Shown piece after piece: positions 1,552 through 9,012 of a DNA stretch of 64,000 nt. A program made the position numbers and the translations under genes. The notes beneath the pieces were generated by a model. It searched no databases. It saw nothing but the letters and a program-made list of their open reading frames with translations, and was not told the origin of the DNA. Origin of the DNA: a virus; the IMG/VR virus record IMGVR_UViG_3300032299_001203, positions 1 to 64,000 of that record; one strand, given 5' to 3'. Every line of letters starts with the position of its first letter. Within the stretch, counting starts at the first letter, position 1.

Positions 1552-1701
1552 ATGAGCAAAAAAAGAATGATGTCAAAACAGCAGCGGCTATATTACGAAT
1601 ATCAGAACAAGGAAAAAGTTCGGCAGGAATTAATAGAATATATAAAGTTACAAAGAGAAGTGGAACAACTAAAAGATTACAGGAAAAATAATGCTATTTG
1701 A
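1552..1701 (+). CDS. small basic helical protein (49 aa), not in the ORF track
   Basis: TAGGAG RBS at 1541-1546, ATG at 1552, MSKKRMMSKQQRLYYEYQNKEKVRQELIEYIKLQREVEQLKDYRKNNAI*; overlaps the rSAM start. Confidence 0.6.
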   Translation: MSKKRMMSKQQRLYYEYQNKEKVRQELIEYIKLQREVEQLKDYRKNNAI

Positions 1702-3148
1702 AATCAAAGCTACTCGGTTTAATGAAGGTGATACAAAAACTTTTTATTATGATAATATGTCCAACATCTTAAAGGATGAGGATGGAAATGTTTTTGAATA
1801 TCCACAAGAACAAAGAAAGATAAACAACAGTTTAAAACCATACAAACCGTTTGACAAAAACAGGCCATTAAAAAAATCTAAATTAATTTCACATTTAAAA
1901 ATTCAATTAGGTTTGAGTTGCAATTACTCTTGTGATTATTGTTCTCAGAAATTTGTTGAAAGGCAACCAGAAACTTCCAAAAAAGACCTTGATGTTTTTA
2001 TGGAAAAATTAGAGGCTCTGCATTTCGATGAAGATATTGGATTGAGAATTGAATTTTGGGGCGGTGAACCATTGGTTTATTGGAAAACATTAAAGCCATT
2101 GACTGAAGCTATCGTACAAAAATTTGCTTCTTGGAAAACAAAACCTCGTTTGAGTATTATTACAAATGGATCCATTCTAACCGATGAAATTATTGATTGG
2201 TTAATGATGATGGATTTTGCTGTATCCATATCACATGATGGTCCTGGTCAATTTGTTCGTGGTCCAGATCCCTTTGATGATCCAGAAAAGAAAGAAACTA
2301 TCCTTGGTTTTTATAGAATGATGACACGCCTTGGTAAAAGCTTTAGTTTCAATGCAATGCTCAATTCCAAAAATCAAAGTAGAAAAGAAATTTATGATTG
2401 GTTCGTAAATTTAACCGGTGACGAAAATGTTATTCTTGGTGAAGGATCTTTGGTTGATGCTTATGATGAAGAAGGTATTTCAAATTCTTTACTTACAAAA
2501 CAAGAACATTTTGAATTTAGAAAAAAATCATTTGGTGAATTGTATGGCAGCAATGGTAAAATAGGGTTTGCGGCTCAATTGGGTAAAATTGATGGTTTAA
2601 TTAACTCTATTTTAAACCATGAAGAATCCAAATATTTGGGTCAGAAATGTGGTATGGATGATGAACACACCATATCGGTAGATTTACGTGGAAATGTAAT
2701 GACTTGTCAAAATGTCAGTTCTTTAGAAATCTCAAAGAATGGAGAATCTCACCATGGCGGCAATCTAAGTAATTATTCCAATGTAGAACTAAAATCGGTC
2801 ACTCATTGGTCCAATCGTAAAGAATGTCCAGAATGTCCTGTATTACATATTTGTAAAGGTGCCTGTATGTTCTTGGATAAAAAGTTTTGGGATATTTCGT
2901 GTGCCAATGCTTATTCGGATAATGTGGCTCTATTTGCCGCAGCATTCACGTTAGTGACCAACGGATATGTGCCCACTTTAATTAAAAGTGATACTTTACC
3001 ATTGGACAGGCAAGATATTTTTGGAGATATCTTTGAACACAAAGAAGAAACTAACCATAAAAAAATCATACCAATCAAAGTGGTAAAGGAAATTGTTGGT
3101 GAAGTGGACGATATTCCCGTGTATGGTAAATCTCGTTTGGAAGTATAA
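1691..3148 (+). CDS. radical SAM enzyme with SPASM domain (peptide/protein maturase type)
   Basis: CNYSCDYC, FWGGEP, SISHDG; C-terminal KCG..DLRGNVMTC..CPECPVLHICKGAC..SC. Confidence 0.92.
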   Translation: MLFEIKATRFNEGDTKTFYYDNMSNILKDEDGNVFEYPQEQRKINNSLKPYKPFDKNRPLKKSKLISHLKIQLGLSCNYSCDYCSQKFVERQPETSKKDLDVFMEKLEALHFDEDIGLRIEFWGGEPLVYWKTLKPLTEAIVQKFASWKTKPRLSIITNGSILTDEIIDWLMMMDFAVSISHDGPGQFVRGPDPFDDPEKKETILGFYRMMTRLGKSFSFNAMLNSKNQSRKEIYDWFVNLTGDENVILGEGSLVDAYDEEGISNSLLTKQEHFEFRKKSFGELYGSNGKIGFAAQLGKIDGLINSILNHEESKYLGQKCGMDDEHTISVDLRGNVMTCQNVSSLEISKNGESHHGGNLSNYSNVELKSVTHWSNRKECPECPVLHICKGACMFLDKKFWDISCANAYSDNVALFAAAFTLVTNGYVPTLIKSDTLPLDRQDIFGDIFEHKEETNHKKIIPIKVVKEIVGEVDDIPVYGKSRLEV

Positions 3149-3151
3149 ATA
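3144..3151 (+). promoter_or_regulatory. T4-type late promoter TATAAATA
   Basis: exact consensus ending 33 nt before the ATG at 3185; gp33 is encoded in the window. Confidence 0.75.
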
Positions 3152-3184: not shown

Positions 3185-4084
3185 ATGCCATTACCAACAT
3201 CAGGACAACCTATATCGATAGCCAATATTGAAGCGGAAGTCGAAATTCCTGTAGGAACAGCGACCAATTTAGGTTTTTTAAATGAGTACATAAAACCTGG
3301 TATAAGACCAGCCACACCAAATATGGCCGGATTTTGGGGTTTAAAATACTATCTACAAAACAATGCAGGCAACTGCAATGACGCTGGGGCAAGTAATTGT
3401 AACTGTAATTCTGCAGATTGTACGGTAATTCAATGCAATGCAACAAATAATTGTACCAACATAGGTGCACCAAATTGTGACGTACAAAAATGGTTACAAA
3501 CAGGTGACTGTAACATTGTTCCCACTCCTGTGTATAATTGTGTTAGTAATCAAAATTGTTTTACTTATAACTGTAATTGTAGTAAAATTATTTGTACCAA
3601 ACTTTTTGAAATCGGTTTAATGAAACGAAACATTTTTGAAGCCGATCAAGCATTTGGTGAATATCTCATCAAAACTAATCCAGATATTTACAATGGATAT
3701 CGTGCATGGGCAGAAATTGTTGTTGATTGGATGGAAGGAAAAGGTCCTAAAATGATGTTTTGGATGAGTGATGAGAAGTTTAGTGTGGCTGCCAAAAAGT
3801 GGTCAACAACTTGGGCTCACGATATTGCAACTCCTTGGGCTGAAGAAATGGCATATATGATGGGTGAAAAAGAAGCTGGTAGCTTGGCAGGTAAAATGAT
3901 TATGGTCTTTGGTATCCCTATCTGTAAAGGTATTGGTTTATGGCAACGTTGGTTCGGATCAAGTAAAAAACAACCAGGATTTTTAAAAGGCGCAGCACTT
4001 GTCATTATTTTTGTTATGTTTAAATTGGTAGCTGAACTTGGTCGAATGATTGAGAAACTCACACCAAAAAGGAGTGTCGTTTGA
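3185..4084 (+). CDS. Cys/Asn-rich protein, candidate substrate of the modification cluster
   Basis: N-terminal MPLPTSGQPIS; 12 [N/D/Q]C dipeptides in aa 63-132; KIICT-type C-terminal domain with hydrophobic helices. Confidence 0.8.
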   Translation: MPLPTSGQPISIANIEAEVEIPVGTATNLGFLNEYIKPGIRPATPNMAGFWGLKYYLQNNAGNCNDAGASNCNCNSADCTVIQCNATNNCTNIGAPNCDVQKWLQTGDCNIVPTPVYNCVSNQNCFTYNCNCSKIICTKLFEIGLMKRNIFEADQAFGEYLIKTNPDIYNGYRAWAEIVVDWMEGKGPKMMFWMSDEKFSVAAKKWSTTWAHDIATPWAEEMAYMMGEKEAGSLAGKMIMVFGIPICKGIGLWQRWFGSSKKQPGFLKGAALVIIFVMFKLVAELGRMIEKLTPKRSVV

Positions 4085-4804: not shown

Positions 4805-5518
4805 ATGAACCAGAGTTTTAAAACAAAAGAAGATCGAGATCGTTACCATTGGTATCAAAATGCACAAAACATGTTTTGGCAAAGTCCAATTTGGGAAGAA
4901 CAAACAAAATTTGATGAGAAGTTTAATGAAGTTTTGCTAGAAGAAATTTATAGCATTGGAAAAAATATTGTTTTGGGTGTGGACAAAGATCCACACAATA
5001 GTATATGGGACTACAGTAGACCCAATTTAAATATACTTAAACAAGAAATTATCGACATAGTAACAAAAAAAATTGCACAAAATATTCCACAACTTAGAAT
5101 GTTGAATATCCGTGGGTGTGAACATTTTATGGGTTGGGTGAACGTGCGTGAACCAGGTGAACGCCTTGAAGTACACGGACACACCGAATCGGCGATTGCA
5201 GCAACCTATTACATAAAGGCCAAAGAAGGATGTGGTGATTTGGTGGCATTTGATTCATCACACGCAATCGATTGGGAAAATAATTGTTTGAGTGGTAGTC
5301 CTTTCATGCGAGCCCGAAGATTCAAACCAGTTGAAGGTAGATTAATATTTTTTCCATCATATGTTTTACATGGAGTCGATGAAAATAAATCGGATGATTT
5401 AAGGATTTCATTGTCAACCGATTTACGAAAAGTGGTCGAAAAGGATGCATCAAATACAGTTATTTTAAAAAGTTGGGCAGGCCGAATGGCTAAAATCAAA
5501 GAGTGGAAACTTGAATAA
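4805..5518 (+). CDS. 2OG-Fe(II) oxygenase, TIGR02466-like
   Basis: WVNV..PGE..HGH, YY, GRLIFFPSYVLHGV, RISLS. Confidence 0.85.
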   Translation: MNQSFKTKEDRDRYHWYQNAQNMFWQSPIWEEQTKFDEKFNEVLLEEIYSIGKNIVLGVDKDPHNSIWDYSRPNLNILKQEIIDIVTKKIAQNIPQLRMLNIRGCEHFMGWVNVREPGERLEVHGHTESAIAATYYIKAKEGCGDLVAFDSSHAIDWENNCLSGSPFMRARRFKPVEGRLIFFPSYVLHGVDENKSDDLRISLSTDLRKVVEKDASNTVILKSWAGRMAKIKEWKLE

Positions 5519-6051
5519 TGTTTGCCAAGTTGGAAAAATCATTCGAAAAACCAATCTATGCAATTACCGATTCACTAAAAACATTTAAAGATGAGAATGG
5601 TAAAGGTATTGACTATAAAAAAGTTTGGTCTCCTGAAGCCGAAAAAATTTATGGATTTTTACCAAAAAAATATTGGCCAGATTTTCACTTGACAATAATG
5701 ACAATTGACTGTATAATACCTCCACATACAGATACAGAAATTATTACTTCAATTAATTTTTATTTACAAACAGAAGGATGTAAAACAACATTCTATACAC
5801 CAAAGGTTTCTCTGCCCAAAACAACACAAATTGAAAATCAAACCAACGGCCATATTTTTTACGAAGAAGATTTGATGGAAATTGGTAGTTTTATTGCAAA
5901 AGATTTTGAGGTGTGGGTACTTGATGTGAGTAAAATACATGGTGTAAATGGTGATTTTAAATTAAGAAAGGCATTAACCCTTGGAACTTTTGCACATAAG
6001 TATGAGGATGTAATTAAAATGTTAAAGGAAACAGGCAATGTCATTTGTTAA
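5518..6051 (+). CDS. putative Fe(II)/2OG oxygenase (double-stranded beta-helix fold)
   Basis: PPHTD...LDVSKIHGV...RKAL gives an HxD...H triad. Confidence 0.7.
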   Translation: MFAKLEKSFEKPIYAITDSLKTFKDENGKGIDYKKVWSPEAEKIYGFLPKKYWPDFHLTIMTIDCIIPPHTDTEIITSINFYLQTEGCKTTFYTPKVSLPKTTQIENQTNGHIFYEEDLMEIGSFIAKDFEVWVLDVSKIHGVNGDFKLRKALTLGTFAHKYEDVIKMLKETGNVIC

Positions 6052-6706
6052 ACTAAAACATTTGTACGAATATATGCCTCATACAATTATACCAAAAGGT
6101 CAAGCCGATTCGTTTGCTGGAAAATATGGATTAGGTGTAAGGCACAATACAATTTGGACACCAGAACCTGAACGTGAAACTCTATATAAAGTTATTCCTG
6201 AAAGATACTGGAAAGATTTTCAAGTAACCAGAATGTCAATAAATTGTTTGTTATTGCCTCATGTGGATAATGATTTTATAACAACAATTAATTTTTATTA
6301 TGAACCGGGAGATTATAAAACAATTTTTTGGAAAGCAAAACCTGGAGCAAATTCTTGGAAAACAGAAGAAGATAGGCACACAGGTGTTACAACTTCTAAC
6401 ATGGAAGCAAAAGATATTGATGTTGAAGATTTAAAAACTAAAGTTAAAGAGTTTGTGGCAGAAAAAAAGAATATGCCAACCTGTGAAGAAATTACATATG
6501 TCGATGCTGTATACACTTTTGATGATGTGTATGAAATTGGTTCATTTGTTGCCAATAAAAATGAGGCGTATTTGTTGGATGTTCGGGTAGCACATAATGT
6601 TGAACCGTTAGATGGCACAAAACTCAGAAAAGCTTTTGCTTTGAGAACCCGACATTATGATTATGGACAAGTATATGAAATGCTACAAGAAACTGGAAAT
6701 TTATAA
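6038..6706 (+). CDS. putative Fe(II)/2OG oxygenase, paralog of the previous gene
   Basis: LPHVD...LDVRVAHNV...RKAF. Confidence 0.7.
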   Translation: MSFVKLKHLYEYMPHTIIPKGQADSFAGKYGLGVRHNTIWTPEPERETLYKVIPERYWKDFQVTRMSINCLLLPHVDNDFITTINFYYEPGDYKTIFWKAKPGANSWKTEEDRHTGVTTSNMEAKDIDVEDLKTKVKEFVAEKKNMPTCEEITYVDAVYTFDDVYEIGSFVANKNEAYLLDVRVAHNVEPLDGTKLRKAFALRTRHYDYGQVYEMLQETGNL

Positions 6707-6717
6707 AGGAAATAAAA

Positions 6718-7491
6718 ATGTTTTTTGAGAAATTAGATTACACCGTTGACATTGAAAAATTAAAAAAAGAAGTGCGTGAAAGTGTATTTACTTTAGGTGA
6801 CCAAGTTATACAAGGTGAAGAATTTGAAACACCAAAATATCATGGCTTTGGTGGTTGGAGTTTGTTAAGTAGAAATGCCACATGGACCGATGGATGGGAA
6901 GCAATTCAATTGGAACAAGGACAAACATTAGAATCTTTTTTACCCACCCAAGAATTAATTTATAAAGCTTATAAACATTTTAATCTTTACCATGGTTTAG
7001 AACACGATAAACCAACTGAAGCATATGTTGGTGAAATTAAAAAAGTAATAGATGATATCCGTGACTTAGGATTTTATCCTTGTAGAGCCAGAGTTTCGTG
7101 TTTAAAAGCTCATTCAAAAAGCTTAGTACATAGAGATGCAGATTCTGCAGAATATATGACACGCATACATATTCCGCTATGGACAAATGAAAAATGTGTT
7201 CATATCTGTCAAGGTAAAAATTTACATTTACCAGCAGATGGAGGTGTTTGGATGCTTTGGACAAACCTTTGGCATCAAATTAGAAACGATTCCGATGAGG
7301 ATCGTTACCATATAATTATGGATGCATACGATACGAAAAAGATAACAAAATATTGTAAATATGAAGGAGATTTTGAACTGTATCGTAATTATGTTCGTGG
7401 TCAAATGGAAAAAATTGACGAGGTCGAATTAACAGAAGAAGATATTGATTTCTTTGAAGCAATTAAAGAAAAATATTTGGCTAAAAAATAA
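6718..7491 (+). CDS. aspartyl/asparaginyl beta-hydroxylase-like oxygenase
   Basis: HRD, RIHIPLWTN, HLPADG, WHQIRN..DRYHII; AAGGA RBS. Confidence 0.8.
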   Translation: MFFEKLDYTVDIEKLKKEVRESVFTLGDQVIQGEEFETPKYHGFGGWSLLSRNATWTDGWEAIQLEQGQTLESFLPTQELIYKAYKHFNLYHGLEHDKPTEAYVGEIKKVIDDIRDLGFYPCRARVSCLKAHSKSLVHRDADSAEYMTRIHIPLWTNEKCVHICQGKNLHLPADGGVWMLWTNLWHQIRNDSDEDRYHIIMDAYDTKKITKYCKYEGDFELYRNYVRGQMEKIDEVELTEEDIDFFEAIKEKYLAKK

Positions 7492-9012
7492 ATGGATGAT
7501 CGTCATGGTATTATCTTTACTGGTATGGAAAGAACCAGAACAATCAGCCGTCCTGCGGGTGCAGTGCGGCTAAGAACTTTTTTAGAAAAACACAATTACA
7601 ACATTGAAGTTATAGATTATTTTGGTAATTTTACTGAGAAAGAACTGGAATTACTTTGTGAAAGATATATTGGACCAAAAACATTATTTGTTGGTATAAG
7701 TATAACATTTGTGTATGCTTTTGATAAAATTAATTACTTATTTAAACACATCAAAGAAAAATACCCAAAAGTAAAAACACTAATTGGTGGTAGTGAAACG
7801 CCAATTGAAGGCGTAGATTTAACACAAGTGGATAAAATTGTTTGGGGCTACGCCGAAGAAACCATGTTACATTACATGAAGTTTCTTAGCAGAAAGCTTT
7901 TAAATGATTTGCCATGGGTGCCTTACAGAGGAACAAAATCAATTAATGCAGAGATGTTATATAAAAACGACTCTAGTGATTTGACAATTAAATGGATAGA
8001 AAGTGATTTAATTAAAAACAATTTTTTACCCATCGAAATTAGTCGAGGTTGTATTTTTAGATGTAGATTTTGCTCATTTCCACTCTTAGGTAAGAAAAAG
8101 AATGATTACATTCGCCATGTAGATAACTTATCTGCTGAGTTGAGAAGAAATTATGAAATGTTCGGTGTCAATAATTACTGGTTTAATGATGATACCTTTA
8201 ATGACAATGTGGTCAAATTGGAATATGTCGCTGAAGCAATAGCTAAAAGTGGTGTAAAAATAACATACACAGCTTTTTTAAGAGCTGATTTGATTGAGGC
8301 TTTTCCAGAAACTATTCCCATGTTGGGTGATACTGGTCTTGTTGCTGCAACCTTTGGATTGGAAACATTTCATCCAGAAGCAAAAAAAGCCATTGGCAAA
8401 GGACTAGATAATGAAAGGCAGTTTGAAGCAATTAGACAATTGAAGAAATACAAACCAATTTATACTTACACGGGTATGATTTGTGGATTACCAGGAGAAC
8501 CAATTTCTAGTGTGTTGAATAGTCAAAAAATGTTGATTGAACAAAACTTTGAAGTGTTTGATAATTGGGATTGGTGGCCACTTTTAATCAGAAAAGGTTC
8601 AATAAGTCGTTTAAGTGAATTTGAAAAAGAATATGCAAAATGGGGTTATTCTGAAATGTTACCTGGAGAATACATTATTCCTGCTGGAGAAACCGATACA
8701 AAATATGGTAACGAAAATGATGGTGTGATGGTATGGAAAAGTAAATATGCAAATTGGTACACCTGCAGAGCAATTGCCAATAATCTAAACATGGAAACAG
8801 AAAAACACAGAATTAAAGCTGGAAAATCCATATATGGAAATGCAGATAAAGGAGTTAGTATTAATCATGATGTTTATGAACTAGTTGGTTTGGGTGTTGA
8901 TGTTAAAGATATTATTGATGGCAATTTTGATAAAAGCTTTTTAAATAGAAAAATACAAGAAGCTGATCAAACCATTCTTGAATATAAAAAATTAAAGTTG
9001 GGATTATTATGA
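7492..9012 (+). CDS. B12-binding-domain radical SAM enzyme
   Basis: N-terminal RPAGA..EVIDY..FVGIS..LIGG..GYAE; EISRGCIFRCRFC; DDTFND; GLET; GLPGE. Confidence 0.85.
   Translation: MDDRHGIIFTGMERTRTISRPAGAVRLRTFLEKHNYNIEVIDYFGNFTEKELELLCERYIGPKTLFVGISITFVYAFDKINYLFKHIKEKYPKVKTLIGGSETPIEGVDLTQVDKIVWGYAEETMLHYMKFLSRKLLNDLPWVPYRGTKSINAEMLYKNDSSDLTIKWIESDLIKNNFLPIEISRGCIFRCRFCSFPLLGKKKNDYIRHVDNLSAELRRNYEMFGVNNYWFNDDTFNDNVVKLEYVAEAIAKSGVKITYTAFLRADLIEAFPETIPMLGDTGLVAATFGLETFHPEAKKAIGKGLDNERQFEAIRQLKKYKPIYTYTGMICGLPGEPISSVLNSQKMLIEQNFEVFDNWDWWPLLIRKGSISRLSEFEKEYAKWGYSEMLPGEYIIPAGETDTKYGNENDGVMVWKSKYANWYTCRAIANNLNMETEKHRIKAGKSIYGNADKGVSINHDVYELVGLGVDVKDIIDGNFDKSFLNRKIQEADQTILEYKKLKLGLL

Follow-up and report, generated by a model that had tools for sequence, protein, structure and literature searches.

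An Asn-Cys-rich protein of a T4-like marine virus and its relatives: probable substrate of an adjacent radical SAM/SPASM enzyme and candidate fibre-type virion component

The stretch of DNA considered herein (the window, 64,000 nucleotides) comprises positions 1 to 64,000 of IMG/VR record IMGVR_UViG_3300032299_001203, a virus entry of 104 kb (CheckV completeness 62%, GC content 35.7%), and baseplate and tail genes further along the window mark its virus as a T4-like myovirus. On the plus strand, an open reading frame (ORF; 3185..4084) encodes a 299-residue protein rich in Asn-Cys pairs, directly preceded on the same strand by a gene (1691..3148) for a 485-residue radical S-adenosylmethionine (SAM)/SPASM enzyme that is proposed to modify it. 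Alignment and AlphaFold2 modelling divide the protein into a Cys-free, folded N-terminal domain (residues 1-58; 3185..3358), an Asn-Cys-rich region in which each of 12 Cys follows Asn, Asp, or Gln (residues 59-133; 3359..3583), and a C-terminal helical module with K-I-I-C at its start (residues 134-299; 3584..4081); within the Asn-Cys region lies a conserved C-D-x-Q-x-W-L-Q segment (residues 98-106; 3476..3502). A motif resembling T4-type late promoters, TATAAATA (3144..3151, plus strand), is situated 41 nt ahead of the start codon. None of Pfam, PHROG, and NCBIfam matches the 299-residue protein, a tblastn search with residues 1-60 against isolated phages gave no match, and the ESM Atlas gave no match to residues 1-140, its matches to the C-terminal module being confined to viral clusters without names.

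A sequence-only reading of the window had drawn attention to positions 3359-3580, which are exactly residues 59-132 of this ORF, and its description of the protein was accurate: all 12 Cys (residues 64, 72, 74, 79, 84, 90, 98, 109, 119, 125, 130, and 132) are present, the preceding residue is Asn in nine cases, Asp in two (C79 and C109), and Gln in one (C84), the strings SNCNC, YNCNC, and NQNC occur as described, and the stretch ahead of the region is free of Cys (residues 1-63). Two Cys beyond residues 59-132 break the rule, both of them preceded by Ile, namely C137, which lies within an invariant K-I-I-C, and C247. When the 78-residue region (18 Asn, 12 Cys) was shuffled 200,000 times, at least nine N-C pairs appeared in a fraction of 4e-5, and the full set of 12 Cys preceded by Asn, Asp, or Gln appeared in none. 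A search for tandem DNA repeats found none, which rules out a DNA-repeat artefact as the source of the pattern.

Homologues of the 299-residue protein number 442 in a 90%-identity database, counting matches to the C-terminal module alone, and the N-terminal and Asn-Cys parts together match 126 clusters at 50% identity, mostly of only 125-145 residues. Conservation was assessed in 71 non-redundant homologues (30-99% identity) with a total of 1,153 Cys. The residue at position -1 of these Cys is Asn in 73%, Gln in 6%, Asp in 3.5%, Ala in 10%, and Ile in 5%, the Ile-preceded Cys being that of K-I-I-C; once K-I-I-C is excluded, Asn accounts for 77% and Asn, Asp, or Gln for 88%. The residue before Cys, on whose conservation the sequence-only reading had made its proposal depend, is thus conserved. 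Other offsets from -6 to +6 reach at most 35% Asn and 43% Asn, Asp, or Gln, and since Asn is constrained at -1 far above them, the unit is N-C, not C-N or N-x-x-C. The last of these was also tried as the organising motif and ruled out, with three of the 12 Cys fitting it and a family-wide Asn frequency of 35% at -3 versus 77% at -1. In conserved N-C columns, AAC and AAT, like TGT and TGC, are used about equally (i.e., synonymous codons are saturated), so the conservation of the pair reflects a constraint at the protein level. The rule is nevertheless specific to position: one column is nearly always Q-C, and another is A-C in 40 of 44 sequences. Such columns, together with the approximately 10% of Cys that follow Ala, rule out a strict requirement for Asn; the label "strict" given to the pattern is apt for the window protein and fails in distant homologues, where the Ala-preceded Cys occupy fixed positions. 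C98, D99, L104, and Q105, all within the C-D-x-Q-x-W-L-Q segment, are invariant or nearly so.

The enzyme encoded upstream scores above cutoff for Pfam Radical_SAM and for the NCBIfam SPASM domain TIGR04085 (34.2 versus a cutoff of 27). In 36 homologues, the CxxxCxxC motif of the SAM cluster (C77, C81, and C84, in CNYSCDYC) is invariant, as are the seven Cys of the SPASM domain (C320-x13-G334-x4-C339, C379, C382, C388, C392, and C404); about 65 residues precede the cluster motif. The top named NCBIfam matches are PapB, geopeptide maturase, QhpD, DynA, CcpM, SCIFF maturase, TIGR04463, and anSME, all far under their cutoffs, and the best of these scores belongs to PapB (NF047865; 73.8 bits versus a cutoff of 340). 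Among solved structures, the nearest by sequence are 8vpo and, in second place, CteB, with anSME also represented; hand mapping of positions close to catalysis in CteB (PMC10288494) yields S85, W123, I157, S181, Q340, and N341. The enzyme falls in the peptide/protein-maturase branch and represents a subfamily that has no name.

Linkage between enzyme and Asn-Cys proteins was found in both directions. A first viral scan located 80 IMG/VR loci with the protein, 50 containing the Asn-Cys part and 30 the C-terminal module only; the enzyme is directly upstream in 49 of the 50 loci with a full-length homologue (the fiftieth ends with its contig) and is present in just one of the 30 module-only loci, designated L045. 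With the enzyme as query, a second viral scan found an Asn-Cys-dense ORF adjoining the enzyme, on either side, in 118 of 123 loci, the remaining five being contig-edge cases and phage RSP15, whose fibre has only three N/Q-C pairs. The isolated phages JWF (of Achromobacter) and RSP15 (of Ralstonia) display the same pairing, with a 42-44%-identical enzyme inside tail-fibre modules; Achromobacter phage 2-1 is a further isolate with both genes. A bacterial set of 80 loci (34-69% enzyme identity), mostly tail modules of Burkholderiales prophages, has a same-strand ORF with an Asn-Cys run within -5 to +3 kb in 64 cases; 15 of the 16 loci without a run are insufficiently flanked, leaving 64 of 65 adequately flanked loci with one. 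The background amounts to five out-of-frame runs in 511 kb of enzyme-free loci. In the reverse scan, IMG/VR was searched for DNA encoding NCNCNCNC and 120 stretches were obtained; an enzyme gene follows downstream on the same strand in 36 of the 42 ORFs that encode NCNCNCNC, span at least 80 residues, and have at least 4 kb of downstream sequence, versus one of 40 short, evidently non-coding ORFs. Genes for a SPASM radical SAM enzyme and a Cys-rich protein lie adjacent, as in the QhpC and CrpA systems. Because the linkage is both two-way and lineage-independent, an enzyme-substrate relation is very likely, and on this genomic evidence the Asn-Cys protein can be regarded with considerable confidence as a substrate of the radical SAM enzyme.

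The putative substrates take several forms: proteins of approximately 300 residues that include the helical module and are encoded downstream of the enzyme; proteins of 130-176 residues immediately upstream of it that stop right after the run; fusions to Peptidase_S74; and proteins with a Gly-rich domain ahead of the run. Many forms of about 132 residues (e.g., L126:9578-9973 and L139:7578-7976) end in C-F-V-C-A-C-A-C-W, a hydrophobic tail with Cys that forms a distinct C-terminal signature, rather than in N-C pairs. Three paralogous Asn-Cys-run proteins share the single viral contig L045 (9707-11360; 14728-16718). There, the module protein has an unrelated N-terminus and a variable part that ends in an N-C run ahead of K-I-I-C, two downstream paralogues of about 100 residues end in N-C-Y-N-C-N-C-N-C-N-C(-N-C), i.e., (NC)n, and further on lie genes for a radical SAM enzyme (44% identical) and for a 2-oxoglutarate (2OG) oxygenase; the locus represents the system in compact and independent form.

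AlphaFold2 models built with the 71 sequences give predicted local distance difference test (pLDDT) scores of 75-87 for residues 1-60 and about 71 for the WLQ strand (residues 103-105), which is modelled against the N-terminal domain; the Asn-Cys stretches proper (residues 62-97 and 109-140) remained below 50 in two runs. A Foldseek search of the PDB with the model of residues 1-140, in which the Asn-Cys region is of low confidence, returned nothing, and a profile search of the PDB with the protein gave a weak match to cytochrome c555 without an accepted stretch, regarded as spurious. No known metal-binding or disulfide domain, the outcome that the sequence-only reading had named as contrary to its proposal, thus emerged from Pfam, NCBIfam, or Foldseek. 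Its comparison of the first 58 or so residues to a leader did not hold, as the Asn-Cys region is the middle part of a three-domain, 299-residue protein rather than the core of a leader-core peptide. The N-terminus is confidently folded and its first 23 or so residues can be aligned (hhalign probability 81%) to Gly-rich proteins not accompanied by a radical SAM enzyme, for which reasons it is best viewed as a folded, shared module and not as a dedicated leader. The short length and dedicated disordered leader typical of precursors of RiPPs (peptides made by the ribosome and modified after translation) are therefore both lacking.

Several observations suggest a late, fibre-associated context for the Asn-Cys run. 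Exact copies of TATAAATA are depleted in the AT-rich window (three versus nine expected by chance), and the three (at 3144, 21597, and 62068) each stand just upstream of a gene start, belonging to the Asn-Cys protein, a tail tube cap, and a tail fibre, respectively; among unique homologous genes, 28 of 80 carry the motif 28-41 nt upstream, versus an expectation of 0.005. The three copies are consistent with T4-type late promoters. In prophages, the run ends no more than eight residues from the stop codon in 55 of 64 fibre ORFs, the neighbouring genes include Phage-tail_3, fibre, and lysozyme genes, and distant Asn-Cys-run proteins are likewise encoded within tail modules. In gp028 of phage JWF, a run of N-C and D-C pairs leads directly into a Hint domain, in two viral homologues of the N-terminal and Asn-Cys parts (L132 and L135) the run is followed by Peptidase_S74, and the "side tail fiber" of RSP15 has the C-terminus N-C-Q-C-G-N. 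S74 and Hint belong to fibre and spike proteins whose C-terminal domains remove themselves (S74 as a chaperone), so in these relatives the run would become the mature C-terminal end; this arrangement, together with the C-terminal position in prophage fibres, suggests that the run forms the mature tip of a trimeric fibre. By homology and by its late-promoter-like motif, the window protein too is a putative virion component.

In place of S74 or Hint, the window protein bears the unrelated K-I-I-C module, which is all-helical (residues 134-299, pLDDT 72-84) and includes one strongly hydrophobic helix at about residues 265-290 (Kyte-Doolittle 2.1); VIA-align wide matched it to helical bundles only, with Z no greater than 6, below the tool's stated noise level. 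The module is separable, following Gly-rich domains (PF21722), long fibre-adjacent proteins, or other N-termini in phage proteins elsewhere, and two near-complete genomes contain a Gly-rich protein with the helical module and no radical SAM enzyme. Initiated by K-I-I-C-T-K-L, it behaves as a mobile unit, typically placed after a poly-Gly run on otherwise unrelated phage proteins, among them carriers of Gly_rich_2 and DUF4815 and a 616-residue protein encoded beside a cyanophage fibre gene, and it takes the place held by Hint or S74 in relatives. In one protein (L079 / P0115), a Gly run separates an intein/Hint-like C-terminal motif, V-V-H-N, from a K-I-I-C module that comes after it; a single protein can therefore contain both Hint and this module. 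It could constitute a novel domain for the assembly, release, or anchoring of fibres.

Further genes accompany the pair. A 2OG-Fe(II) oxygenase gene (4805..5518, plus strand; PF13759, Pfam E 1.1e-16) encodes a conserved third partner, given that in 73 of 84 prophage/phage loci a homologous oxygenase (hhalign probabilities 91-99%) is encoded directly upstream of the radical SAM enzyme and that such a gene also belongs to the marine cassette. Two paralogous plus-strand ORFs of 177 and 222 residues (5518..6706) with an H-x-D motif, which match each other and no Pfam family, are co-inherited in most full-length loci of the marine lineage and may represent divergent cupin-type oxygenases. Next comes a plus-strand gene for an Asp/Asn beta-hydroxylase-like protein (6718..7491; PF05118, Pfam E 1.3e-9), found in nearly all marine loci with enough downstream sequence; in the prophage set, none of the 12 largest clusters of neighbouring genes corresponds to it. 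It is followed by a gene for a B12-binding radical SAM protein (7492-9012), whose best NCBIfam match is the PhpK-type P-methyltransferase subfamily (98 bits versus a cutoff of 600); the B12-radical SAM gene and a second hydroxylase gene occur in only part of the marine lineage.

Characterised SPASM enzymes offer both parallels and contrasts. QhpD installs several thioethers between Cys and Asp or Glu side chains in QhpC, a small Cys-rich subunit of quinohaemoprotein amine dehydrogenase (PMC8326336), and the two systems are alike in that a SPASM enzyme is paired with a small Cys-rich protein that is not a released peptide; the window enzyme matches the QhpD family TIGR03906 with E 3e-18, but with a score of 65.7 against a cutoff of 453, and the substrates share no recognised similarity. 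In the phage system, moreover, the candidate acceptors are mostly Asn, located at -1 of each Cys, and the protein is a proposed virion component rather than a periplasmic enzyme subunit. CrpC of Methanococcus voltae (TIGR04463), a SPASM enzyme with three [4Fe-4S] clusters, introduces ranthionine-type cross-links into the adjacently encoded, large Cys-rich CrpA, as demonstrated in vitro; the N-terminal domains of CrpA aid enzyme engagement, its modified motifs (C-A-G-M, C-A-V-D, and C-P-L-V) have the acceptor after Cys, and phages are not mentioned in the report (PMC13692751, September 2026). That pair likewise unites a SPASM enzyme with an adjacent Cys-rich protein, but it is archaeal and cellular, and the window enzyme scores only 46.7 against the TIGR04463 cutoff of 525. 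The only characterised thioether from Cys to the Cbeta of Asn is made by NxxcB in the streptococcal ranthipeptide NxxcA, with Asn upstream of Cys (PMC8326336); NxxcA is, however, a short quorum-regulated peptide with a single N-x-x-C ring, whereas here the constraint on Asn falls at -1 and Asn stands at -3 for three of 12 Cys. The PapB/PapA (freyrasin) and CteB/CteA (SCIFF) pairs resemble the proposed system in their iterated thioethers and many Cys per substrate, yet differ in their C-x3-D motifs, short leader-core peptides, and RiPP recognition element (RRE) domain. A literature search confined to open-licence PMC papers and bioRxiv found no description of an Asn-Cys/radical SAM system in phages, nor any of enzymatic modification of S74- or Hint-type fibres.

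The explanation that best accommodates these findings, to which we assign a probability of roughly 0.6, is that the protein is a late, small fibre-type virion component whose Asn-Cys region is cross-linked, probably by thioethers from Cys to Asn, Asp, or Gln. Expressed late from its own T4-type promoter, it would comprise the folded N-terminal domain, the Asn-Cys region (residues 59-133) as substrate of the SPASM enzyme encoded directly upstream, and the helical module as an accessory, with the 2OG-Fe(II) oxygenase as a conserved helper. In Asn, Asp, or Gln, the side-chain carbon adjacent to the amide or carboxylate would lose a hydrogen to the enzyme, and that carbon would then be bonded to a Cys sulfur in a ranthionine-type thioether; repetition would create a rigid knot that reduction does not open. 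The pattern, its conservation, the two-way linkage, the class of the enzyme, and the fibre context of relatives are observed; we infer the modification itself, its thioether nature, the pairing of residues, and the place of this protein in the virion. Thioether formation, as the most economical chemistry, is given even or slightly better odds, because the residues found at -1 are just those whose side chains bear a carbonyl. PapB, QhpD, CcpM, and CteB, the named enzymes to which the window enzyme is closest, all form thioethers. Known acceptors are Asn for NxxcB, Asp for PapB, Asp or Glu for QhpD, and Thr for CteB, the reacting carbon in each case adjoining an amide, acid, or hydroxyl (PMC8326336). 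The preference of the sequence-only reading for an iterated enzyme motif over an ordinary disulfide or zinc domain is accordingly favoured by the conserved -1 residue, the lack of a match to a known fold, and the strong enzyme link, while the modification it implies is a proposal.

Certain observations weigh against this explanation. N-x-x-C, the one known Cys-Asn motif, fits only three of the 12 Cys, and we know of no precedent for a thioether between adjacent residues. Ala precedes about 10% of the family's Cys, and runs of A-C or V-C close some of the short forms, so Asn cannot be the sole acceptor, and the presence of Ala at -1 in places warns against any single connectivity rule. The low pLDDT of the Asn-Cys stretches could instead signify an obligate trimer or a bound metal. 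The window gene is located approximately 10 kb from the tail genes, and the window protein itself has no fibre Pfam domain. At one well-flanked bacterial locus (L172, Comamonadaceae metagenome-assembled contig JAIXOX010000143.1), the enzyme is present and a Cys-run protein is not; an upstream 299-residue fibre-like ORF at this locus ends without Cys. Many of the marine-lineage loci share ancestry, and their counts are not independent; independent support for the linkage comes from L045, JWF, RSP15, the prophage groups, and the reverse scan.

The same gene linkage would be expected if the radical SAM enzyme modified the region by a different chemistry, such as Calpha thioethers (sactionine), Cys oxidation yielding formylglycine or a dehydro residue, cross-links of the C-C or C-O type, or a product made jointly with the 2OG oxygenase (e.g., hydroxy-Asn), a prospect that we consider unlikely, if by no means negligible. 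The named NCBIfam matches, all far under cutoff, leave the reaction type unassigned, anSME aligns across the whole enzyme core, about a tenth of the Cys follow Ala, and the oxygenase is a conserved partner in those 73 of 84 loci; of the six hand-mapped CteB positions, moreover, only Ser181 is identical and only Trp123 similar (PMC10288494). Nevertheless, the protein lacks the C/S-x-P/A-x-R motif of anSME substrates (Pro or Ala at +2 and Arg at +4 are not combined at any of the 14 Cys), the -1 residues are precisely those with carbonyl-bearing side chains, like known ranthionine acceptors, and the best partial matches (PapB, QhpD, and CteB) are ranthisynthases. Improbable, in our estimation, is an unmodified trimeric-fibre domain held together by a ladder of zinc or iron bound to Cys, or by a disulfide ladder, the enzyme acting on some other protein or small molecule. 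The C-x-C runs recall the ligand sets of metallothioneins, iron sites of the H-x-H type recur along the threefold axis of T4 gp37, and S74 in relatives implies trimers, which would also account for the low pLDDT of a monomer model. Such a domain would, however, leave unexplained both the near-obligate, two-way, lineage-independent co-occurrence with one enzyme family and the conservation of the -1 residue rather than of Cys spacing; that no known metal or disulfide family was matched in Pfam, NCBIfam, or Foldseek (the last with a low-confidence model) does not by itself count against it.

A true RiPP precursor, with an N-terminal leader and an Asn-Cys core excised as a free bioactive peptide (a toxin or signal), seems very improbable. 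The short forms of 98-176 residues directly upstream of the enzyme do resemble RiPP clusters, the enzyme's class is dominated by RiPP maturases, and a cyanophage radical SAM maturase has been read as an "antibiotic synthesis gene" (PMC12801897); on the other hand, annotation of neighbouring genes revealed neither a protease nor an exporter, the N-terminal part is a folded domain common to non-substrate proteins, such a run also occurs in fusion with long tail-fibre proteins and with the fibre-specific S74 and Hint domains, and the late promoter is like those of tail genes. Beyond the cross-linked fibre-type component favoured above, a more far-reaching version can be entertained only tentatively, as it is rather doubtful: a dedicated SPASM enzyme and a 2OG oxygenase might weld the C-terminal tip of trimeric fibres with many Cys-Asn thioethers, possibly between chains, from marine T4-like phages to Burkholderiales prophages, with the K-I-I-C module, Hint, and S74 as domains for assembly or release that can replace one another.

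Radical SAM enzymes are known to form thioether cross-links in small antimicrobial peptides and in two cellular proteins; no such cross-linking has been described for virus particles. If the favoured explanation is correct, the host-recognition fibres of many phages would carry covalent staples installed by an enzyme, which would bear on the understanding of fibre stability and host range and on phage engineering, and (Asn-Cys)n together with one enzyme would constitute a compact, genetically encoded tag for protein stapling. It would also provide a function for a widespread, unannotated family of phage radical SAM enzymes, such a gene having been read as "auxiliary" or "antibiotic" in one paper (PMC12801897), and would hint at what some of the many unexplained 2OG-Fe(II) oxygenases in marine phages do. 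Should the more tentative version with inter-chain welding hold, the receptor-binding organelle would possess a covalent "chain-mail", representing a new class of post-translational modification of the virion.

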